A stretch of 64,000 nucleotides of DNA from Phyllosticta citribraziliensis (lineage: Eukaryota). Below, piece by piece: positions 1-24,163 of the stretch; positions within the stretch are counted from its first letter, which is position 1; the number at the start of each line of letters is the position of its first letter. The stretch spans positions 1 to 64,000 of the forward strand of contig NW_027117349.1 of the NCBI RefSeq assembly GCF_038025025.1. The letters run 5' to 3'. The notes beneath the pieces are model-generated. The model was given only the letters and a program-made list of their open reading frames with translations, had not been told where the DNA came from and did not search any database. The position numbers were made by a program, and so were the translations under genes.

Positions 1-2
1 AC

Positions 3-2147
3 CTAGTACTTTCTATAAATAATTCTACTATTAGTTTTACTAGTCTTAGTAATAATTTAGTAAATATCCTTAATATATTAAGGCTATCTAATAATATTAT
101 AAATATAGCCCTAAGCTATAACTTCTTTAGTAATAATATCTAGAATACTTTAAAGTAATAGAGGTCCCCTCCTTAGGAGGAAGAGTCTAATAAATACTAC
201 TATTTTAATCTTCCTCCTACTACCCCTAATATATATTAGAGAATTATACTAACTATAGAAAGTTTAGTCTATAGAAATAATAATAATAATACTATTATCC
301 TAATAAATAAGGATAATAAGGAAGAAGTCTATAATAATAATAAGGTAGATTTAGACCTAGAAGTTATTATTATATCTCTAACTAATAATACTAAGAAGAT
401 TTATATAATTAAGTACTATATTTATACTAGAATTAATAACTAGATCTTATCTATTAGATTTTATAAGAAGTTTCCTACTAAGGCTATTCTTATATTTAAA
501 GAATCCTAGTAAAAGAAGCTCTCTAAGCTTAGTAAGGCTAGAGATTAGTATAACTTAAGTAACTACTATAACTCTTATATCTATAGGATTAGTAAGTACT
601 TAGGTCTTTAAACTAAGTAGGGAATAGATAATATTATTTATCTTTATTTAGAGTATATTTAGTATAATTATAAGAGATTATCTAATATCCTATCCTATAA
701 GGATAGGTATTATTAGTTTATACTATCTTTCTACCCTATTTACTCTACTAATACTATTAGCTTATATATATTTAGCTATAACTATAATACCTAATTTAAG
801 GAAATTATAGCTATAGTTTAGAATATAATCCCTATCCTTAATAAGAGTCTTACTACTCTATTTAAAATAGGCTATAATTAGTATCTAGACCTTATTAATA
901 CTCTACTTAGTAAGTTTAAGGCTATTAGTAATTTAATTATTAATAGCTCTCTCTTTAGCTTCTTAGATAGTATATACTCTAAAATTAATAAGGAGTTTAG
1001 CTACTACCTCTAGTATTAGTAGGAAATTAATACTTATTAGAATCTAGGCTAGAATTATATAATATTCTATTTACTAGTATAGTAGCTTATCTACTAGTAT
1101 CTAATATACTAGCTCCTCTATATTTTATTTAGATCTAACTATACCTACTAGCTCTATATAATACTATACTATATTAAGGACTAGAAAAAGGGTAATAATA
1201 CTAATTTCTACTATTTTAATATTAACTTAAATAAATATACTAATACTAATAGGGGTATTAATATAATTTAGGGTACTATTTCCCTTAATAGTAAGACTAA
1301 TATAGACTATATAATTTTAATAGAGGGCTTTATACCTTATTTTAAGGATTATAGGAATAGTACTATTATTAAGAATATATATAACCCTATAAATATAATA
1401 GGTATTATTAATATTAAGAAGGGTCTAATCCTTAACTATTTTATTAAATTTATTAAGGATAGAGGCCTAGACTAGTCTAATAATAAGGTAGTAGTCTATA
1501 GTACTAGAATTTCTTACCTAATAATACTATATAGAGCTAAGGGACTAGTAAAGGGTATATATAAGATAATTTTCCTATAGTACTATAAAGTTAACTAGAA
1601 TTATAACTATCTTAAAATTAATAAGTTAGGTACTTAGGTAGAGCTAGCTACCTACTATAAGAACTAGGTCCCTTTTAAGATTATATTTTCTAGTTTCTTA
1701 TATATATATAGCTATTACCCCTATAAGTTTCTAGTATTAGTAGAGGTAATTAGTATTAATTTAATTAGTAATACTTTAGTCTACTCTTATTACTAGGACT
1801 CCTTATTAGTTATAAAGGAAGTTAAGAAGGTTATAGATATAGCTAATAATCCTAAGATATTAGCTAGCTACTTTTATAATATAGAGCTAGATATAATTAA
1901 TACTTATAATAAGCTATTCCTAGTCTTTACTAAAGAGGAGAAGTATACCTTTAGTAAGAAGTCCTACTTCTATTATAAGGATAATAATATTACTAGGCCT
2001 ACTCTTAATAAGCCTCTATTAACTAATAAGGATATTATTAAAGCTATAGGTATCTAGTACTATAATAAGTATAGTAAGGATAAGGACTAGGATAATATCT
2101 TATCTACTAGCCCTATTTATAGGAGTATATATAATTTAGGTAAGTAA
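3..2147 (+). pseudogene. RIP-inactivated 2OG-Fe(II) dioxygenase-like (PhyH/clavaminate-synthase-like fold) gene, 5' end probably outside window
   Basis: One reading frame (codons start at positions divisible by 3) with no frameshift; stops are TAA/TAG explicable as RIP of CAA/CAG/CGA/TGG. De-RIP reading: EF..Y..H.REIN...NLGW...FYSL.QQL.RQ.P.Y; GD.TNF(R/C)HFDIN (HxD at 1212-1220); RG.N.IQG.ISL; ISHP.IPHGAKGP.KG.R..IFPWY (distal His at 1530-1532); GTW.ELA..H; YG..PYKFP..VE; SDALVC.RRWDS; FGKKSYFY. The 3' stop position is uncertain. Confidence 0.7.
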
Positions 2148-2240
2148 TATACTAATTAGCTACTCTAATCTAGCCTCTTATAGACTATAGCTTATTCTCT
2201 TTTTTATCTTTTATCCTTATTTCTTCTTACTTATTAGGGG

Positions 2241-2873
2241 ATAGTAAAATAAGGAGTACCCCCCTATATATAGTATTACTAGCTAGTATAGTTTTTATAG
2301 CTTTTAATAGGTACTTTTAGTAATTATAGTTCTTATTCTTAGCTATAGTTTTAGCTTAGATATAAGTAGAAGATTAGGCTAGTAAGAAAATAAGACTATA
2401 GGTAGCTCTAGAATACTAGGAAGGTATAGTTCTATATAGCTTAGTAGTAATAATAATAGCTAATAAAAGTATAAGTAAATTTAGTATCTTTAGTAGTAAT
2501 AGGAGGTTTTATACTATCTATATTTTTAGTAGTAGATTAGCTAGTTATATACCCCCTTTTATAGCTACTTATTAAGAGGTACTACTTATATAAATAAAGT
2601 CTTTTATACTAGGTTAAACTATTATCTACTAAATACTTAGTTATTTATTTATTTATACTTATTATTTATATCTAAATCTTATACTACTTAGATAGTGAAG
2701 TAATGGCTAGATAGTAGCTTATTTTAGTTAGTTTAGTAGTTATTTTATTCCTATCCTATAGAGCCTACTTATTTACTACTAGTTACTATCTCTTATGCCT
2801 CTTCTTATGCTGGCATCTTGGCTGGCTGAGTAAGTATATCAGTGAGTAGCTAGTCCCGCCCATACTAGATACC
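2241..2873 (+). repeat. 633-bp direct repeat, copy 1 (LTR-like or subterminal TE segment)
   Basis: Aligns without indels to 3318-3950 (offset 1077). Differences are almost all C/T or G/A transitions. Confidence 0.92.
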
Positions 2874-3320
2874 TATAGCTTTAATAATATCCTTATTAGT
2901 TAGTAAAGGCTTATTAGGAGTAGGCCTAGTAATATTATTATCCTTATAGTAGAAATAGGACTTCTTACTAAAGATACTCTTCTCCTCTTTAATAAAGACT
3001 AGGAATAGCTTATTATAGGTATTAATTATATCTAGCTCTATATTATAGAAATAGCTAGCTAGTATCTTAGGATTACTAACTATATCTATAACCTTCTTAA
3101 CTTCCTTTATAACTAATAAGGAGTCCTAGTAATAAGAGTAGACTAAAGTATTACTAATTAGATTAATACTAATTACCTCTACTAATACTAGAAACTTATA
3201 GGGGTAATAGCTATATATATATAGGAAACTAGTAGATATAATCTTAGAAGGGACCTAATTCTTATAGTATATTACTAGCTCTACCTAAGTACCTATCTTA
3301 TTAATTTCTAGATAATTATA
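2863..3320 (-). pseudogene. Inverted 458-bp fragment of a second, diverged copy of the dioxygenase-like gene
   Basis: Reverse complement aligns without indels to 1602-2059. It carries several transversions (e.g. CTT/CTA, GCT-ACC/GTA-ATA, TAT-ACC/AGT-ATC) besides RIP transitions. Confidence 0.88.
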
Positions 3321-3950
3321 GTAAAATAAGGAGTACCCCCCTATATATAGTACTACTAGCTAGTATAGTTTTTATAGCTTTTAATAGGTACTTTTAGTAA
3401 TTATAGTTCTTATTCTTAGCTATAGTTTTAGCTTAGATATAAGTAGAAGATTAGGCTAGTAAGAAAATAAGACTATAGGTAGCTCTAGAATACTAGGAAG
3501 GTATAGTTCTATATAGCTTAGTAGTAATAATAATAGCTAATAAAAGTATAAGTAAATTTAGTATCTTTAGTAGTAATAGGAGGTTTTATACTATCTATAT
3601 TTTTAGTAGTAGATTAGCTAGTTATATACCCCCTTTTATAGCTACTTATTAAGAGGTACTACTTATATAAATAAAGTCTTTTATACTAGGTTAAACTATT
3701 ATCTACTAAATACTTAGTTATTTATTTATTTATACTTATTATTTATATCTAAATCTTATACTACTTAGATAGTAAAGTAATAGCTAGATAGTAGCTTATT
3801 TTAGTTAGTTTAGTAGCTATTTTATTCCTATCCTATAGAGCCTACTTATTTACTACTAGTTACTATCTCTCATACCTCTTCTAGTACTAGCATCTTGGCT
3901 GGCTGAGTAAGTGTATCAGTAAGTAGCTAGTCCCACCCACACTAGGTACC
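3318..3950 (+). repeat. 633-bp direct repeat, copy 2
   Basis: Same sequence as 2241-2873 (atagtaaaataaggagtaccccc ... tagtcccRcccaYactagRtacc). Confidence 0.92.
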
Positions 3951-5039
3951 CTACTTAGTATGTCTAAAGGGGTAAATCTAGACTAGAAAACTATACTAAA
4001 AATATTAAGGAATTTTAGCCTTACTTATAACCTTAATAATATCCTTTTTTAAAAAAATACTATAAATGGTAATCTTTACTATAAAAATAGAAGTATAATA
4101 AAGATTAAGGGTAACTTTAAATATTAAGACTCTCTTAATAAAAACTAAGTATATAATAAGACCTTTATAACTAAGCTTAACCCTTTCTTTAAGAAGGAGA
4201 AAAGAGATTAGCTATATTAGTAATTAATATAAGTAGGGAAAAAAAAATATCTAAGATAGACTTAATCTAGAGTGGTTATAAGGAAACTACTAGTGGTCTA
4301 AGATAGACTTTAATTAAGAAGGTTATAATCTAGAGTAGTTATATAAAGAGAAGGAGTACTAAAGGAAGAGGAAGAAATAACTATATATAGAAGGGATAAG
4401 TAAAGTATATAAGGTTATAGTAGCTATATATAATAGAGGGAAATATATAAGAGGTAAGAGGGAGTAATAGTTAGAAGGGGGGTATTAAATAGTAAGTAAG
4501 ATATAAGATATAAAAAGATTAATTAAATAATACTTATAAGGTAAATTTAGTTTAATCTACTTTAGTTAACTATCCTTATCTTTTAGTTCTTTTATCCTTT
4601 ATTAAAGAAAACTTAAAGTAAAGTAAGAAGCTTTTAAGGTTTAGAGTAACCTTACCTCTAGTTTTTAAGACCTTATTATTATTTCTAGCTAGAGTACCTA
4701 CTATATTATATCTTTAGTTAGGTTATTATACTCTATTAGGTTCTTTAAATCTTAAATAAAATTACTAAAAATATATCTTATTTACTTAGAACTAGTTCTA
4801 AGTAATATCTTTATATTACCTTATTTAAATCCTACCTAGTTAAACCCTTATTATTTAAACTTAAAAAACCTAAGATCTTTTACTAATACTTAAATTTAAC
4901 TAAGACTTATAGGAACTTAAGAAGATTACTAAAAGTACCTAAATAAGGTAAGTTAAGTTATTCCTTAAAAAGATTACTCTTAAATAGACCCTTTAAAACC
5001 TTAAAATTAATTTTAAACTTATCTTCTACCCTCTCTCTA

Positions 5040-13229: not shown

Positions 13230-14181
13230 TAATTTCCTATAGCCTACTTTACTTTAAAGGTATAAAGGGCTCCCTCTAAATTACTATCCTTAAATAACTA
13301 AGCTTTTAAGAGGACCTCTTAATACCTCTAATTAATCTTAGTAACTTTATTAACTACTATATAGACCCTTTCCTCCTTAAGAAGTATAAAATAATAAATA
13401 AAGTTATCTACTATATCTATTAAATAATAACTTATAAAAAGCTACTAGAACTCTAATAAATTAAGTCTCCTAGAATAAGAAGAGTAGGGCCCTATATTAA
13501 GCTATAAACTCCTAGAAGGATTAGCTAAAAACCCCCTAAAACTAAGATAAGTAGAGTTAATATATTCCCTATTAAAAACCCTAAGAATTAAGTAATAACT
13601 AATAAATAGAATAAAAAGACTATCCTTATTATAGCCCTAGATATAAAGAGTATAAGGAAACTCTATTAGAATAGCTAAAATCTATAGAGTATTAAAGATA
13701 CTAATATACTCCTCCTTAAGGCTAGTAGTTATAGAATAGTTAATAAGAGCCTAATCCTAGAACCTAGGTAAATTAGAATAGATCTAATTAACCTATTACT
13801 ACTAATTACTTAGTAAAGATAAAAACTATAAGTTTTAAGAACTTATACTATAAAGTAAGGAGATAATATAATCTTAAAGTACTAGGCCTAGGCCCTACTT
13901 CTTAAAAGGTATAAAGATACTAGCCCTATTATAGAAGTCTTAATAGATATCCTTTATAAGATTAAAGGTAAAAGGCCTATCTTTACTACTAGACTATAAG
14001 AGTAAATAAAAGGGAGTACCTATAGACTTCTTAATAAAGGATAAAGGTAAGAAGTTAAACTACTTATAGTTTAGCTAGGTATTAGGACCTAGAGTAGAGA
14101 TAATTACTTTAAGAATTAGTAAAAGACTAAAAAAGGTATTTAGTATATAGATAACTTACTTAATTCTAAAGAGGTAGCCAT
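13230..14181 (-). pseudogene. Putative RIP-degraded antisense accessory ORF downstream of the element-1 integrase (unknown function)
   Basis: An ATG GCT ACC TCT start survives at 14181. The distal part de-RIPs to a helical, charged stretch (KEERV..AVDKV.KIDQR.QEVLLKA). No recognisable domain; frame continuity not fully verified. Confidence 0.3.
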
Positions 14182-14401
14182 GAGGGCAAATTATAAGAGA
14201 AGGATAGAATAGAGTTAAGGAGATAAATAATAAATAATAATAACCTACTACTACCTTCCTAAACCTTATTTCCTATCTATCTATTACCTACTTCATTATA
14301 TTTAGTTTCTATAAATAATTTATACCTTCTATAAATACACATTTTTTACCCTCTTTAAAGAATACTCTATATATATTTAGAGAAAGATTTTTATTATAAC
14401 T

Positions 14402-16900
14402 ATAGCTCCTAATAATACTAAGCCTAAAGGCTAAAATAAGGATAAGGTTATTTAGGATCTAGTTAAGTATAACTTAACTAAAATAAAGAATATTAGTAAC
14501 TACTATAATTATTTCCTCTTAGTTATTATAACTAGCTTTAAGATAGATTAGGAATAAGTTCTTAAAAGCTTTACTATTAAGGTTAAGAAGGGCCTTAATA
14601 TTATATACTATCTATCTAATTATATTTTTAATAGTATTAAGATAAGGGAAGACTATAAGAAGATCTTTAAAAGCTATTCTAAGGAGTTTATTAAAGATTT
14701 CTACTAGTAATAGTTAGCTATCTATACTACTATAAGGCCTAAGGAAAAGAGGATTAAAGATAACTTTAATAATATTAATAATATTTAAAAAGGGGAGTTT
14801 TAAGAAGAGTAATTTAATATACTAGAAGAAGGCTATACTAGGACTATTATCTATATAGCCTATAAGTTTATATCTCTTATTAAGCTTATAGTACTTCTTA
14901 ACTAGCTAGCTCTTAAATATTTAGTCCTTATCTACTCTACTTACTAAGACTATAATAATAAGTTAAAGACTCTCTTCCCTACCCCTAATAATATAGCCCT
15001 TACTAAAAAGGCTATTAATAACTAGATTAAAACTAGATAGTTTACTACTATCTATTAGGCTCCTAATAGGGGATAACTTAATATCTATAATATAAAAAGA
15101 GTTAAAGTAGATATTAACCCTATTATAAAATAGTTAGATTATTATTACTATAATAAATTTAATAATCTAGTATTAAGGACTAAGTAAATTTAGGAGCTTT
15201 CTAATAATAAGGAGCTACCTAATAATAATATCTTAGGTACTTTATAAGCCTACTAAAATTATTATAGCCTTCCCCCTATTACTAATTAGCTAGTTATAAA
15301 AAAGTTAAAGACCTTAATTAATATACTTATCTATCTTAGCTTAGCTAATCTAGTCTATATATCTAAGGTATAGTACTAGAAGAGGAAGTAATAAAACTAT
15401 TATTAATTCTATATAGATAAGATTAAGGAGTCTTATAAATATATTATAGAGAATAGTTAACTAGACTACTTCTCTCTTCTTAATAAGGGTAAGGCTAAGA
15501 TAGTAACTTATATAGTAATTATTAAAGAATATATTAACTAAGATAAGATATTAACTTATAAGAAGTATCTTCTCTAGCTTTAATATTTCCTCTACCTTTA
15601 GATCTAGGACTTTAAAAAAGATACTAAAGATATTTAGGAAGATATTAAGGAGTTTATTAATAAAGATACTTTTATTATAATAATTTATTAGAATCCTAAC
15701 TAGTTCCTTTTAATTATTTATAGTAATTCTTACCCTACCCTACTTACTCTCTATACTAAAATAGGATTCTAGAAGCCTTTTATATTAACTAATATTATCT
15801 ACTTCTAGGATATAATTAAGGAGAAGTATAATAAAGTATAATTTAAAATAAGGATTATTATAAATATAGCTAATAGTATCTTTAATTAGTAAATAGCTAT
15901 AGGTTAGTTATAATAACCTAATAATAAAGATAATTTAAGAGGGAGTTAACTTTACTAGATAAGATATATCCTTTATAAAAAGCTATAATAGCCTTCTTTT
16001 TAGAACCTTCTTTACTATTATATAGTAAGTAGCTACTATATCTCTTTAAATATAAAAGTAGGTAGTTATTATATATAGTAATAGTAAGTATATATTACTT
16101 ATTTACCCTTAACCTCTTTAAACTTTTACTACTTAGTAACTATACTATATTACTAGTTTTAAAGGTATAACTACTTAAAAAAAAGCTATAGAAAGTATTA
16201 TCTAAGTTATCTTATCTTTATACTAAGAGATATATAAAGTCTAGGTTACCTATTATAATATATTTAATAACTAGATAAAGTATTATAAAGAGCTAGAGAA
16301 GTCTAATAGTTATAGTATAACCTTTCTAAGTAATATAGAGGCTAATATCTATAGAGAAGAGCCTTTAAAAGGTAGCTTTATCTCTTATACTAGCCTTAAT
16401 AGCTTCTAATACCTAGTAATCTATAATAAGGACTAGAAGGAGAACCTAAAGGTATATATAATCTATATAACCTATATTATAGAGTAGGATAGTACCTTTA
16501 ACTTCTCTAAGTATAGTATCTTCCCCTATAATACTTAAGACTTAAAAAGATATCTTTAGATTTAAATCCTATTTATATAAAATTTAGCTAAATAGAAGTA
16601 ACCTATTCTTTAAAAAATAGACCCTTTAACTATTACCTTAAAAGATATAAGCCCTATCTATAATACTTTAATTAGAAGAGTATCTTAGGACTTAGTTAAA
16701 GTTTAATCTATAGTTAAGATAGTATTTATAGAAGATTAGATTAAGTAGAATACCTATATTACTATTATTAAATTATACCTAATAGCTAATACCCTTAATA
16801 CCTATATATAATATAAGAGGCTTAAGAAGGAGTATAATATAGAGTTCTAGACTTAATCTACTACTCTCTAGCCTAAGGGTAATAAAGTTATAGATATAGA
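14402..16900 (+). pseudogene. Putative RIP-degraded large accessory ORF (~800 codons, unknown function)
   Basis: Begins ATA GCT CCT (likely ATG GCT CCT). Long codon-like, K/E-rich stretches whose stops are RIP-type. No domain recognised; end approximate. Confidence 0.35.
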
Positions 16901-18939: not shown

Positions 18940-20703
18940 TCTAGATAAAGGATCCTAAAGTTATTACTAGCTAACTAGATACCTAAAGTAAATACCTAGT
19001 AGACCTAGAGGATATTATTAAAGTAATTAAATAGTATAACTATAAGATAATACTAGAGATAGACTCTCTCTATAAGTAAGTAAGAGAGTATAAAATATAT
19101 ATACTCTATAATAGCTTATTATATATAGCTAATAGGTTATATATTCTAAAAGAGGATAATCTATATATCTACCTACTTAGCTATATTATTAAGTAGCTAG
19201 TAATAGAATATCTAGGTATAGCTAGAATATACCCTATAGTATTAAACTAGTATTATTTCTTAAAGATAAGGGAACTAATTACCTAACTTATAAAGAACTA
19301 TATACTCTATAGCTATAGCTAGAAGTATAATAGGATAAATAGCTTACTATAGCTATTACTAGTAAAAGAGTACCTATAGGAGGACCTTACTATAGATTTT
19401 ATAACTAGCCTTAAAAAGACTAAATAGGGCTATAATACTATCCTTATAGTATATAACTAATTTAGTAAATCTAAGTACTATATTAAGTATAGTATAGAAG
19501 ATAGAGGGATAGGAGTAGCTAAAATAGCTAAAATAATAATTAAGTAAGTCTTTAGCCTCTATAGCCTACTAAGGACTATTATCTTAGACTATAGCCTATA
19601 GTTTATTACTAACTTATAGAAAGAGGTATTATAGTAATTAAAGATAATAGCTAAGCTAATAAGCCCCTATTACCTATAGTTAGATAGATAAACTAAATAA
19701 GCTAACTAAGAGCTTAAAAAGTACTTATATAGCTTTATTAACTAGTAGTAAGATAACTAGGATATATAGCTCCTAATTACTAAACTTATAACTAATATAC
19801 TAATTAATACTTCTATAGGTATATCCCCCTTCTTTATATATTATAGCTTTAAACTATATATAAGCTTTAATTATAGTAAAGTAAGACTAAAGTTAAAATT
19901 AAGAGCTAAGATATTAGCTATAGAATAGGTAAAACTAATAAAGGATATCTAGTTAAAGACCTAATTAGTACTTATACTTATAAAGAAGAGATAAGTATAC
20001 TAAGCTAATAAATACTAATATACTTATAATATTTAAGAGAATAACCTTATCTTTATTAAAGTAAAGTATATAGATACTAGATACCCCTAGAAGCTTAGAT
20101 AGCCTAATCTAGGGCTATATTAAATAGACTCTATAAGGGGTAACTAGGTAATATTAGACTTACTATAAGGTTCTTATATTATAAACTAATTTAATATAGA
20201 ATAGTTATATTAATATAATAATAGGCTACTATTTAGTTAATAAGAGCTACCCCTGCTACTAGAGCTAAATAATAAGAGTAAGGAGGAGTAGTATATATAG
20301 GAGGTCCTAGATACCTAGATAAATAAATAAAAGGAAGGTATACTATAGTTTTAGGTTTATTAGATAGGATACTAATAATAGCTTATTTAATAGAGTAGTA
20401 GAGACTATTATAGATTAATATTAGATAAATAATAAAAAGGGACTATACCTACCTAATAGCTAGTCCTTAGATTAAGGACCTAGAGGGGAGGGGGGTAGTA
20501 AGATTAATTAATATAGATAGAGTAGATAGATAGTAGAGTAGGTATAAGGTCTATAAGGATATTAAGATATAGGGTTAGCTAAACCTTAGTTATATAGTAG
20601 TATATATACCTAAGTAAGCTATAGGCTAAGTTAGCTATAGCTCTATATCCTCCCTACTACTCTACCTTATAATTATTAACTATTAGCTATTTAACTTACC
20701 TTA
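18940..20703 (+). mobile_element. RIP-degraded chromoviral Gypsy 3' half (element 2): integrase, chromodomain, PPT, 3' LTR
   Basis: De-RIP motifs GLLQPLP..PWEDL.MDFITGL, IISDRG.QF, SPYHPQ.DGQTERANQ.LE.YLR.F, GPY, and chromodomain EW.V.EVLD...F.V.W.GY. PPT AGAGGGGAGGGGGG 20482-20495; LTR ~20499-20703 with TAAG...CTTA (RIP of TGAG...CTCA) termini. Confidence 0.85.
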
Positions 20704-23498
20704 TTAGGTACTAATCTACTACTTTATAATATTCCTTAGCTTTACTAACTTCTACTACTACTTTATTAAGGACTTCTCCTTACTTACTTAACTACTTATA
20801 GAACTTACTAAAGGGGAACTAAAGACTACTCTCTTAGAAAAAAAATACTATATCTATACTACTCTAAATTAGACCTCTAAATATAAATATACCTTCTAGG
20901 CTTTTAAAACTATATTTACTTCTACTCTAATACTTACCTACTTTAACCCTAAGTAGGAAACCTAAATTAAGATAGATATCTCTAACTTTATTACTACTAG
21001 TATCTTCTTCTAAGTTATTAATAGATAATTTTACCTAGTAGCCTTCTTCTCTAAGAAGATATATCCCTAATAGAGTATAACTATAAAATCTATAATAAGG
21101 AGTTACTTACTACTATTAAGGTACTTAAGTCCTAGTACCTAGAAGCTATTAGTATAGAACTAGATAACCTAGTAAAGATTTTCTCTAATTATAAGAATCT
21201 AGAATAGTTTATAACTACTAAAAATCTTAACTATTAATAGGCCTACTAGGCTAAGTTCCTCTTTAAATTTAACTTTAAGATTATATACTACCCTAGTAAG
21301 TAGGATAAGAAACCTAATTCCCTTACTAGATACTCCTAGGACCTTCTCTAAGATAACTTTAATATCTATTAACTATACTAGTACTAGACTATTCTAAAAT
21401 AATACTACCTAGACCTAGCTTTATAATCTATTATCTCCTATCTCTCTATTATATCTCCTATTATAGACTAACCTACTCCTACTACTTCTAACCTAACCCC
21501 TCTAGCTACTTAGTCTACTCTATTAGAAGAAAGTTATAAAGCCCCTAGTATTACCTATCTATAGGAACTTATTATTAAAGCCTATAAGACTAATAAGGAT
21601 ATATAATACCTTATAGTAGCTATATAGAACTAAAACCTAAAAATCCTAGTACTCCTTATTAAAAAGGGCTATTACCTTTATATAGGATACCTAAAGGTTA
21701 AGGATAATTATCTTTTTATAAAAAACTAGCTCTTTATCCCTAATAATACTAAACTATATCTTAAGATTATATAGACTTACTATCTTCTACTATACCTTAA
21801 TTACCCTAGCTATAAGTTAATAAGTAAGCTTATTAGCTACTTCTACTACTAGTCTAATTTAAAGAAATAACTACTTAACTTTTACCTATACTTATACCTA
21901 ATACTACTACTCCTCTACTAATAACTAAAAGAAATAAGATTTCCTCTAATTACTAGAACTACTAGTCTACTACTAGACTAGTATTAGCTTTAACTTTATT
22001 AAGTACCTATCTAGTTTCTATTTCTATAATTAGGACTACTTCTATATCCTTATTATAATTAACTACCTTATAAAGGCTATTATCTTAGAAGGACTTCTAG
22101 ATAATAGTATTAACTTCTTATATAAGGTAATTACCTACTACCTCTTCTATATATAAGATTTCTATAAGGAGTTTATTAATAATTATAGTAGTACTATACT
22201 TACCTAGGTTTAGTACTATATCTATTATTATTATAGTATTAAAATTAAGTACTCTTTAGCCTAATATCCTAAGACTAATAGCTAGACTAAAATAACTAAT
22301 AAGTCTATTAAGAATATTATCTATATCTTTATTAACTACTACTAGAATAACTAGATATTCTAGCTCCTCTATATTAAGTTTACCCTTAATAACTATATTA
22401 ACTCCTCTATTAATATATCTCTATTCTTTACTAGCTATAGCTATAACCTATATATTAGAATTAAGCCCCTACTTCTAAATATTAATTAAGACTTTTAAAT
22501 TAACTATACTAACTATATCTTTACCTAGACTTATACTATTAACTAGTAGCTTAGTATACTTATTTATACTATATAAGAGGACTATACCTACTATACTAAT
22601 AATTACTAAGCCCTATACCTAAACTATAAGGTTAGAGACCTTATTTATATTAATATATAGGACTTCTCTATTATAAGGCCTAGTAAAAGTTTAGACTAGA
22701 AATAGTATAGCCCCTAGCTAATTAAGTATATTATTAACTATAAGGCTTATAAACTTACTATCCTAGAAGATAAGCTTATTAAAGGCCTTATACTAATCTT
22801 TTACCTATTAAAACTTTACCTTATTCTAGCCTCTTTTCCTAGTTAAGCCCTTAAGTCTACTAGCCCTAATATCTTTACCTATAATATTTCTAAGGATAAA
22901 TCCTATAGTAAATAGGAAGTAGCTAAGATTATTAACTTCTATAAGATAAAGTACTTTAGTATCTAGTATAAGGCTATCTTTATTAGTAACTAGGATAACT
23001 AGAATACTAACCTCTAATAGCTTCCTTAGACTAACTTTATCTATTTAAAGAATCTTATTCTAGAATACTACTATCTTAACCTAGGTAAACTACCTCCTCT
23101 AGATAATTTAATTAATTAAATAGATCTAAAGAAAGACCTACTAGGTATTACTATTTCTCTAGCTTAAGAGACTTTATCTAGTAGAGAGGGGGGGTAGTAT
23201 TAGGCCTATATCTATATAAGAACTAGTTTACTAGAACCTAACCTAGTATAGGTAAGTATATAACTATATACTTACTTAGTAGACTAAGTAATTAGCCTAC
23301 TATAACTATATTTCTATCTTCTTTTTAGTACTACTTCTCCTTTTCTCTTTACCTTAGACTTTTAGTTAGCTAAATATAGTACTTACCTCTTTAAGCCTTA
23401 TAGACTTAACCTTAGTAAAAATAAGGTTTTATCTCTAAATATATCTAATTATCTATTATCTTACTTAACTTATTACCCTATAGAATACTAATCTTATA
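20704..23498 (+). mobile_element. RIP-degraded chromoviral Gypsy 3' portion (element 3): RT end, RNase H, integrase, chromodomain, PPT, 3' LTR
   Basis: De-RIP motifs FLGFANFYRRFIKDFS, P.L.HF.P..ET.IETD.SDF, NYEIYDKELLA, SDHKNLE.F.TTK.LNRRQARWAEFL, HPETDGQTE.AN, and chromodomain EWEV..I.D...QYK. PPT AGAGAGGGGGGG 23183-23194; LTR from 23198 (TATTAGG, RIP of TGT..) to ~23498. Confidence 0.88.
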
Positions 23499-23766
23499 CT
23501 TCTACCCCTTCCTATATAATAGTATATATAGTATAGGAGCTAAAAGTTAGAGCCTTAGGTATATTAACTCTACTCTTTTAAATAGTACTAGTCTTTATAA
23601 GAAATTTAGGGGTTAATTTATTTAGTATATATATACTATTTTAATATAGTTATAACCTACTTAGATTTATAATATATTAGTAATAGGTACTACTAGGATA
23701 GCTATCCTTATCTCTTATAGTCTTAGACTTAAGAGGGATATTAAACTAAATAAATAAATAAATAAA
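23499..23766 (+). mobile_element. Possible 3' end of a non-LTR (LINE/Tad-like) element
   Basis: A stem-loop CTCTTA-t-AGTC-tta-GACT-TAAGAG (~23712-23735) is followed closely by a (TAAA)n tail (23747-23766). Only a weak hint of upstream coding sequence. Confidence 0.35.
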
Positions 23767-24163
23767 ATCTACTTCTAGACTAGCTAGATATAGCTAGTAT
23801 ATATATAAGTAGTATAGCTATATATGCGTAATAAAATCTAGCTATAGTAAAGAGAAGTTTTAAATATAAGATTAGTAGCCTATAGGGTATTAATTTAAAT
23901 AAGAAAGATAGATAATTAGGTGTATTTAGAGATGAAACCTTATCCTATCTTTAGTCAAGTCTTAGTATTATTTTATGCGCAGACTCTCACTTAGGCGCAC
24001 GCGCCCCGGGTCTCTCCGGGCCCGGTTCGCCGTCTCTCAGGACTCGCTGCTTAGCGAGTCCATTGACTTAGCTAAATACAATCTGTCGACATGACAGCCC
24101 TTCCCACCCCTATATCTAGACTCGTGCGATTTCGAATCTCTCATCCTGCACACCGCTCATGGC

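Follow-up and report, generated by a model that had tools for sequence, protein, structure and literature searches.

The first bases of the window (the term used throughout for the whole stretch of 64,000 nucleotides that was analysed, from Phyllosticta citribraziliensis, contig NW_027117349.1, positions 1 to 64,000 of the forward strand) very probably hold the remains of the third open reading frame (ORF3) of a Ty3/Gypsy long terminal repeat (LTR) retrotransposon, which occupies positions 3-2147, would encode an oxygenase-like protein of the PhyH clan, has been destroyed by repeat-induced point mutation (RIP) and is followed by the 3′ LTR of the element at 2241-2864. This interpretation draws on a stop-poor reading frame that aligns to a family of fungal proteins, on the modelled fold of an intact relative, on intact homologs located behind gag and pol in Gypsy elements, and on LTR termini that the window copy has in common with one of these elements.

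A RIP-destroyed reading frame and its protein family

The plus-strand frame that begins at base 3 contains 37 stops in its 715 codons (5 TAA, 32 TAG and no TGA), and the five remaining frames of 3-2147 contain 56-164 stops each. When this segment was shuffled 500 times with its dinucleotides preserved, the lowest stop count over the six frames averaged 77.8 (standard deviation 4.5, minimum 62), and in none of the 500 shuffles did it reach 37. The base-3 frame is also the lowest in stops in most 150-base bins up to about position 2100; in bins 451-600 and 601-750 fewer stops are found in another frame. Because the dinucleotides CA, TG and CG are absent from 3-2147 and the TA/AT ratio is 1.68, RIP is considered saturated over this segment, in agreement with an earlier note, made from the letters of this DNA, which had described a reading frame of more than 700 codons filled with TAA and TAG by RIP. 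The segment lies in an AT-rich block (positions 1-24000 of the window, GC content 0.22-0.28), and the remainder of the window has a GC content of 0.50-0.62. The following features are recognised in the frame, with residue numbers taken from the intact relative P0016:

3 to 2147, plus strand: relic of ORF3 (PhyH-like oxygenase protein), inactivated by RIP; from the fewest stops, the database search and the family profile
417 to 578, plus strand: probable relic of a CxC...CxxH zinc-type motif; placed by eye from its spacing relative to the aligned 'GL', outside the profile alignment
927 to 1776, plus strand: core of the oxygenase domain (double-stranded beta-helix, DSBH); from the invariant P0016 columns G91 to L374
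1212 to 1220, plus strand: relic of the HxD iron ligands, TAT TTT AAT, that is Y-F-N from H-x-D; aligns to invariant H191 and D193
1527 to 1562, plus strand: relic of P-H-G and, ten residues on, of an arginine; aligns to invariant P291, H292, G293 and R302

Relatives were sought with an alignment of two readings of the window frame, one with TAG read as Q and the other with TAG read as W, in an exhaustive HMMER search over 1.84 billion representatives. This search returned 171 matches at E ≤ 1e-3, 35 of them at E ≤ 1e-10, with the database protein P0004 at the top (E = 7e-23). Full-length matches are about 800-1060 amino acids (aa) long, and residues ~320-670 of the query align to their C-terminal third. 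A profile built from 72 relatives matches the window frame in a single domain (E = 3.2e-40, positions 325-772 on residues 195-667) and recognises also an inverted fragment on the minus strand that is described below (E = 3e-13). Pfam found no match in the read-through translations of the window, whether stops were entered as X, Q or W, and neither did a word-index protein search with the RIPped translation. The earlier claim that the frame runs without a frameshift holds for residues 195-667, which form one profile domain in one frame, and does not extend to the part upstream, where nothing aligned to the profile.

The relic represents roughly the C-terminal 715 of about 900-950 codons and spans about protein residues 200-950. 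The gene continues beyond the window start, where its frame is still open; before the matched domain, relatives have ~520 residues versus ~320 codons in the window. Because the gene runs past the window start, what had been taken for the N-terminus is an internal linker. The stretch KRQRSPP, which had been described as resembling a nuclear localization signal at the N-terminus, sits in the disordered part of this linker and thus inside the protein.

Members of the family have in common the blocks GW.R..(F/Y)S..QQ..RQDP.YY, KGD.T.FRH.D.N...GRG...IQGSVSLDDE and PHG..GP....RRT.LPW, and further GTW..L..AH, SDAL.G.RRWD and FG.KSYFY. The uncharacterised Pezizomycotina family that the earlier note had proposed is therefore real and bears the motif blocks given for it. 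Source names of the relatives are 'hypothetical' or 'uncharacterized' in all but three cases (two JGI entries named PhyH and one 'unnamed protein product' labelled Sphagnum), and the named source organisms are Pezizomycotina, among them Sclerotinia, Xylona, Rhinocladiella, Coccidioides, Penicillium, Aspergillus and several lichen fungi. A large number of short predicted family proteins (P0102, P0109, P0083, P0089, P0006 and others) have an N+I+Y+K content of 0.32-0.47, versus about 0.15 in intact members, which suggests that these entries stem from gene prediction on copies mutated by RIP in other genomes; degraded copies of this kind are therefore perhaps common in public annotations.

The damage to the window copy can be followed at single codons. 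An alignment of 33 sequences supplies 58 invariant family columns in the window, of which 22 are kept, 30 are restorable by T>C or A>G alone and 6 are not. Columns that are kept or revertible thus number 52 of 58, compared with 11.4 ± 2.9 (maximum 21) for random codons of the same ORF in 2000 trials. At the iron-ligand positions the window has Y, N and Y, each one RIP-type transition away from H, D and H, and the relics of H191 and D193 are restored by T>C or A>G alone. The distal histidine has become TAT at 1530-1532 and the arginine TAT at 1560, and P291, H292, G293 and R302 are all RIP-revertible. The coordinates proposed from the letters were thus correct, with 1212-1220 falling on the H-x-D of the family and 1530 on the histidine of PHG, and the basic residue predicted after that histidine is the invariant arginine. 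In the probable zinc-type relic, CxC would correspond to YIY at 417-425 and CxxH to Y..Y at 567-578; both C>Y and H>Y are changes of the RIP type. The window copy itself is dead, since its iron ligands, the arginine and all TGG tryptophan and CAG/CAA glutamine codons are mutated.

Fold and active site

The structure was modelled with AlphaFold2 on the intact 506-aa relative P0016 with 72 aligned sequences, and not on the RIPped window copy. The model has a predicted local distance difference test score (pLDDT) of 90.1 and a predicted template modelling score (pTM) of 0.86, and its DSBH matches fall in residues 73-394. A Foldseek search with this model returned 210 Protein Data Bank (PDB) chains at E ≤ 1e-3, and the top ones are all 2-oxoglutarate (2OG) oxygenases of the PhyH clan, namely proline hydroxylase H11, SnoN, EvdMO1, DUF1479 proteins, GriE and EctD. 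VIA-align of the same model against 48,161 representative chains gave, among others, these matches:

YbiU (DUF1479 protein, 4rgk): Z 20.7, 276 residues aligned, root-mean-square deviation (rmsd) 3.1
Gig2 of Candida (DUF1479 protein, 6akz): Z 18.9, 275 residues aligned, rmsd 3.4
EvdO1, KanJ and EctD: Z about 15
Human PhyH (2a1x): Z 13.7
AlkB-type chain 3h8o (DNA-bound entry, N1-meA/N3-meC lesions): Z 8.7
NgTET1 (5cg8): Z 8.2

Chains of the PhyH clan lie at Z 13-21, above the AlkB-type and TET chains, and the DUF1479 proteins YbiU and Gig2 are the nearest of them. The AlkB-type and TET chains have the general DSBH core in common with the model, and no feature particular to those two families was noticed. 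H191, D193, H292, G293 and R302 are invariant in the 33 aligned sequences and at least 90% conserved in 72. R302 is located at +10 from H292, about where enzymes of this superfamily have the basic residue that binds the C5 carboxylate of 2OG, and is followed by the likewise invariant R303 and T304; PhyH uses an arginine at +11. The alignment thus predicts that the family has the HxD...H iron facial triad. Because the fold matches and the invariant HxD...H...R agree, the family is assigned, by modelled fold and active-site layout, to the DSBH oxygenases of the PhyH clan, outside the curated PhyH and DUF1479 Pfam thresholds, which is in line with the 2OG-oxygenase layout that the earlier note had restored from the mutated codons. 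In 21 family members and ORF3s scanned with Pfam, no TET/JBP or AlkB match was found, nor any to DUF1479 (PF07350) at E ≤ 0.01. A precomputed match to PF05721 (PhyH) is present in 10 of 120 listed relatives. An Atlas feature search placed PhyH and Gig2-like clusters at 0.89, and one neighbour cluster has PF07350 on 41% of its members, both of which serve as leads only.

An intact ORF3 protein is about 900-1200 aa long and has four parts, which are an N-terminal helical domain, a disordered linker, the CxC...CxxH motif and the C-terminal oxygenase domain. The CxC...CxxH motif, upstream of the oxygenase domain, is common to full-length members. In the N-terminal 450 residues of the ORF3 of L005, one of the intact elements introduced below, residues 20-210 and 360-450 are predicted at pLDDT 80-98 and residues 219-358 are disordered. 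These 450 residues had no Foldseek match in PDB at E ≤ 1e-3 and a top VIA-align Z of 5.0, which is not proof of a new fold.

Intact Ty3/Gypsy elements that carry the gene

Genomic contexts of the gene were surveyed on metagenome contigs, which were scanned with the 33-sequence alignment; 98 relatives were returned and 80 loci were kept (designated by L and a number). All-against-all BLASTN revealed a unit of ~10.65 kb that is common to many long contigs, with 80-92% identity and direct repeats of ~270 bp at its ends. Two loci, L005 and L016, are intact, have a normal GC content and contain three colinear ORFs each:

ORF1, 974-977 aa: gag with aspartyl protease
ORF2, 1112-1122 aa: RVT_1, RT_RNaseH, Integrase_H2C2, rve and SH3_Tf2-1, in the Ty3/Gypsy order
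ORF3, 950-986 aa: PhyH-like protein, ending ~50 bp before the 3′ LTR

ORF3 lies downstream of pol at a distance of 450-860 bp. The LTRs of L016 are 99.64% identical, start with TG, end with CA and are placed behind a polypurine tract, and 4-bp target duplications flank four copies (CTAC, GTAC, CTAC and GTAT). From the LTR structure and the differing target duplications it follows that the whole unit, including ORF3, has transposed. In the comparison of L005 with L016, ORF3 has a ratio of nonsynonymous to synonymous substitution rates (dN/dS) of 0.071, pol one of 0.069 and gag-protease one of 0.173; ORF3 is thus under purifying selection as strong as that on pol.

The gag-pol-ORF3 order is found also in L024 (LTRs 92.7% identical), L039 (gag-pol ORF of 2250 aa, ORF3 of 1223 aa) and L052, lineages in which pol is 47-49% and ORF3 33-43% identical to L005. 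The order gag-protease, reverse transcriptase, RNase H and integrase is present in L005, L016 and L039 and partly in L052. In a quick maximum-likelihood tree, the Gypsy-linked ORF3s fall into at least two separate supported clades. The gene is carried by four divergent Gypsy lineages, and its intact homologs occur repeatedly inside mobile elements, so that the mobile-element association supposed in the earlier note is supported.

An additional layer of mobility is provided by DNA transposons. Thirty-two loci extend at least 4 kb beyond the start of ORF3; in 14 of these the gene immediately follows Gypsy pol, and in 6 it is inside a 9.25-kb EnSpm-like unit. These counts are inflated by many copies with a shared contig-name prefix, the independent units being the four Gypsy lineages plus two terminal-inverted-repeat elements. 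The EnSpm-like unit (L033, L036, L040, L043, L045 and L051; e.g., L033:3022-12270) has ~91% identity between copies, terminal inverted repeats of ~50 bp (CCCTACGGTCACCGCG...) and 3-bp target duplications in four of its six copies. It contains a Transposase_21 (tnp2) relic on the minus strand, and its ORF3 is flanked by Gypsy LTR fragments; it looks like an EnSpm/CACTA-like DNA transposon that acquired ORF3 from a retrotransposon. The second element is located at L001:5225-11631, is 6.4 kb long and has terminal inverted repeats of 72 bp and a 5-bp target duplication (GAAGA). It contains an integrase-like ORF (Pfam rva_4), a 353-aa ORF of no known kind and an intact ORF3 homolog of 947 aa. A counterpart of the 353-aa ORF, with 73% aa identity, is found upstream of the ORF3 homolog in L008 too. 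As a separate observation, the ORF3-homolog region of L019, L020 and L021 is 99.6-99.99% identical across these three separately recorded contigs, which also have short tandem duplications of 83-209 bp and may represent either a single locus assembled three times or recent duplicates.

The element in the window

Behind the ORF3 relic, the window contains the following features:

2148 to 2240, plus strand: spacer of 93 bp between ORF3 and the LTR, with the purine run TTAGGGGA at its end, which resembles a polypurine tract (compare taggggacaacgacttaggcgggggaggta before the 3′ LTR of L016)
2241 to 2864, plus strand: 3′ LTR, copy 1 of a 633-bp repeat; termini homologous to the L016 LTR
2863 to 3320, minus strand: inverted fragment of a second ORF3 copy, counterpart of 1602-2059; blastn identity 93.7% over 458 bp
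3318 to 3941, plus strand: second LTR copy, solo or of another element, with the end CCCACCCACA; from its repeat match to copy 1

The direct repeat 2241-2873 / 3318-3950 has 97.6% identity, and all differences are transitions. The start of the window LTR, TAGTAAAATAAG, is the G>A form of the start of the L016 LTR, TGGTGGGGTAAG; the end of copy 1, CCCGCCCATA, and that of copy 2 both correspond to the L016 end, CCCTCCCACA. The 633-bp repeat, for which the earlier note had proposed to look for a recurrent linkage, is therefore the LTR of the element, its termini being homologous to those of L016. The last ~70 bases of both LTR copies (2795-2865 and 3872-3942) retain TG and CA (e.g., GCTGGCATCTTGGCTGGCTGAG) amid the RIP-saturated block.

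Contigs from sequencing runs cover all of 1-4000 at 85-99% identity, in 60, 62, 1626 and 332 pieces for four runs labelled as four organisms. As many as 21 distinct contigs overlap at a single site. Most differences are T>C, A>G, C>T and G>A changes, as would be expected if RIP had struck many copies independently. The database fragment P0006 is a third variant. Together with the inverted 458-bp copy, this variant and the many diverged contigs uphold the earlier description of the gene as multicopy.

Weighing of the evidence and alternative explanations

Several observations weigh against the reading of 3-2147 as the oxygenase-like ORF3 of a Gypsy element and against the role proposed for it. 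The window starts within ORF3, and neither gag and pol upstream of the relic nor a 5′ LTR or a target duplication is in view; the window copy is therefore assigned to Gypsy on the basis of its LTR termini and of its relatives. The order of LTR, inverted ORF3 fragment and LTR in the same orientation does not fit a simple nested insertion. In the tree, the window copy has a branch length of 5.93 and falls within no supported clade, and the backbone is poorly resolved. The contexts were read from metagenome contigs and not from named sequenced genomes. Both Gypsy pol and the EnSpm-like unit are lacking at twelve of the 32 loci, and some family members thus cannot be shown to be carried by a transposon: among the twelve, L001 is in the other terminal-inverted-repeat element, two are beside Helitron genes and one is beside a Plavaka transposase gene, and the remainder are beside NLR-like or ordinary genes. 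With regard to the fold, PF05721 scored 17.1-18.5 bits, below the cut-off of 22, in 4 of the 21 proteins scanned (family members and ORF3s) and did not match the other 17, and a PDB sequence-profile search gave no match in the oxygenase domain and only low-complexity matches in the N-terminal linker. Tandem duplication was also considered as the origin of the LTR, inverted fragment and LTR order, and could not account for it.

Two alternatives deny the gene a role in the element. That the window copy is a single-copy host gene into which RIP has leaked from neighbouring repeats is very improbable: such leakage into sequence adjoining repeats is known and the relic is at the edge of the 24-kb AT block, but RIP is saturated over all 2.1 kb, an inverted second copy is located 700 bp away, the P0006 variant and many diverged copies in the sequencing runs exist, and the gene is followed by an LTR whose termini are homologous to those of intact elements. 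It is somewhat less far-fetched, and still unlikely, that ORF3 is a passenger, a captured host gene that is copied along without function for the element. The 12 loci mentioned above, without upstream pol or a surrounding EnSpm-like unit, would fit a passenger, as would the annotation of the proteins from named genomes as ordinary hypothetical proteins. However, the dN/dS between two element copies equals that of pol, the linkage has been kept in four Gypsy lineages with deep divergence of both pol and ORF3, and an EnSpm-like DNA transposon also took up the gene, together with LTR fragments. We therefore retain the reading of 3-2147 as a gene of the retrotransposon. In this case, gag and pol of the window element would be located upstream, outside the window, and the ORF3 protein would be made from the element's own transcript, perhaps subgenomic or spliced as for env. 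The protein is quite probably an active oxygenase, and it probably serves the element and not the host.

The function of such an oxygenase can be described only tentatively. The preferred guess for the target is a macromolecule tied to host restriction: a modified nucleic acid or chromatin is possible, held with some reserve, and a protein factor is unlikely. In favour of a macromolecular target are the conservation of a large additional region, the zinc-type motif and basic tails of the protein, and the TET/JBP and orchid AlkB precedents discussed below. A small molecule as substrate is rather doubtful. The corresponding alternative, of about the same standing, is that ORF3 is an active oxygenase on a small molecule and thus metabolic cargo that alters host physiology, not a modifier of nucleic acid or chromatin. 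It is favoured, and the macromolecular reading weakened, because the closest structural matches are enzymes that act on small molecules or proteins of no assigned function: after YbiU and Gig2 they are EvdO1, KanJ, EctD, proline hydroxylase, AsqJ and PhyH (Z 13.7-15.2), with AlkB-type and TET chains only at the much lower values given above, and the PhyH and Gig2-like Atlas clusters can be added as a lead. Against this stand ~450 extra conserved residues (helical domain, zinc-type motif and basic Arg/Ser-rich tails), which are atypical of small-molecule PhyH enzymes, and the pol-like constraint on the gene within selfish elements of three classes. The domain could also be a pseudo-enzyme, a non-catalytic DSBH binding scaffold comparable to the subunit with a PhyH fold in the RNA-editing complex of trypanosomes, and a subunit of that complex (8fnc chain 14) is indeed among the structural matches (Z 14.6); this is improbable, as the near-invariance of H, D, H and Arg would be unexpected for a scaffold. 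The most far-reaching proposal is that an old, Pezizomycotina-wide Gypsy group encodes its own PhyH/DUF1479-clan dioxygenase, which has been borrowed by DNA transposons and acts on nucleic acid, chromatin or a restriction factor against genome defence, which would mean that DNA methylation, RIP or RNA-based silencing is blunted. Taken as a whole, this proposal is speculative and, on present evidence, doubtful.

Relation to known systems and significance

In Ty3/Gypsy elements and retroviruses, env-like third ORFs are located after pol and before the polypurine tract and the 3′ LTR. ORF3 occupies the same position, but its predicted product is an enzyme-like soluble protein and not a membrane glycoprotein. 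YbiU, Gig2 and enzymes of the PhyH clan (PhyH, EctD, KanJ and EvdO1) resemble the family in fold and in the HxD...H...R layout, whereas sequence identity is only 11%, and these proteins are stand-alone, 250-450 aa long and lack both the N-terminal helical and zinc-motif region and a transposon link.

A close parallel is found in orchids: Ty3/Gypsy elements of Phalaenopsis are described as having an extra ORF for a 2OG dioxygenase of the AlkB type, which demethylates m6A in RNA and was proposed to protect the element from surveillance by the host (PMC9289625). Both systems consist of a Ty3/Gypsy element with an additional 2OG/Fe(II) dioxygenase ORF. The orchid system differs in the AlkB type of the enzyme, in being a plant element of 25 kb and in its recent acquisition in one genus (PMC9289625). 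The protein described here is of the PhyH/DUF1479 type by its modelled fold and has a large additional region at its N-terminus; its gene occurs in Pezizomycotina, where at least four divergent Gypsy lineages carry it. In fungi, TET/JBP genes are carried by DNA transposons of the Kyakuja-Dileera-Zisupton, Plavaka, hAT, EnSpm and Helitron groups (PMC12730594). Multicopy 2OG dioxygenases as transposon cargo passed between superfamilies are a likeness, but the family described here belongs to another DSBH clan (compare NgTET1 above) and occurs mainly in retrotransposons, in the Pezizomycotina classes that use RIP. In a recent survey, no TET/JBP dioxygenase was reported from any fungal retrotransposon.

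In the literature searched, which included PMC3248453 and left many journals and Repbase reports outside the search, no dioxygenase ORF, PhyH-like or other, was found in a fungal retrotransposon, and a dioxygenase carried by such an element thus seems previously undescribed. Two kinds of transposon-borne 2OG dioxygenase are known, namely TET/JBP in DNA transposons of fungi and AlkB in one orchid Gypsy lineage, and both are read as counter-defence against epigenetic or epitranscriptomic silencing. What is added here is a different dioxygenase clan as a conserved, selected third gene of Gypsy retrotransposons in ascomycetes, the fungi that defend themselves against repeats by RIP and cytosine methylation. 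If the far-reaching proposal given above is true, no earlier dioxygenase system of fungal retrotransposons would be known, and transposons would have recruited the DSBH fold independently for a third time, after TET/JBP and AlkB. Hundreds of 'hypothetical proteins' would gain a fold, a probable chemistry and a genomic role. Because intact natural copies exist (L005, L016 and L039), the need of the retroelement for the oxygenase is directly testable. For annotation, the family accounts for one kind of RIP-degraded ORF in AT-rich blocks that is overlooked by Pfam and ORF callers.

Other features of the window

Two further relics are found in the AT-rich block. The plus-strand segment 9337-11534 is a relic of a Ty3/Gypsy pol, with 30% tblastn identity to the pol of L005 and a reverse transcriptase-like 'LPxGVTNLLGxF' stretch in its read-through. 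It is adjoined neither by an ORF3-like sequence nor by the 633-bp LTR, and therefore probably belongs to another element. On the minus strand, 13877-16108 is a second long low-stop relic frame, with 455 and 272 codons in one frame and 23 and 14 stops, respectively, for which no similarity to gag, pol or ORF3 was found. Pfam gave no match to either relic, and is thus blind to this degree of RIP even where tblastn detects Gypsy pol.

At the far end of the block, GC content switches abruptly from 0.27 to 0.52 at about position 24000. Just before this switch, at 23421-23943, a 520-bp stretch matches its own reverse complement at 67%. Inside the block, 19684-19870 and 22278-22464 form a direct repeat of 190 bp with 71% identity.

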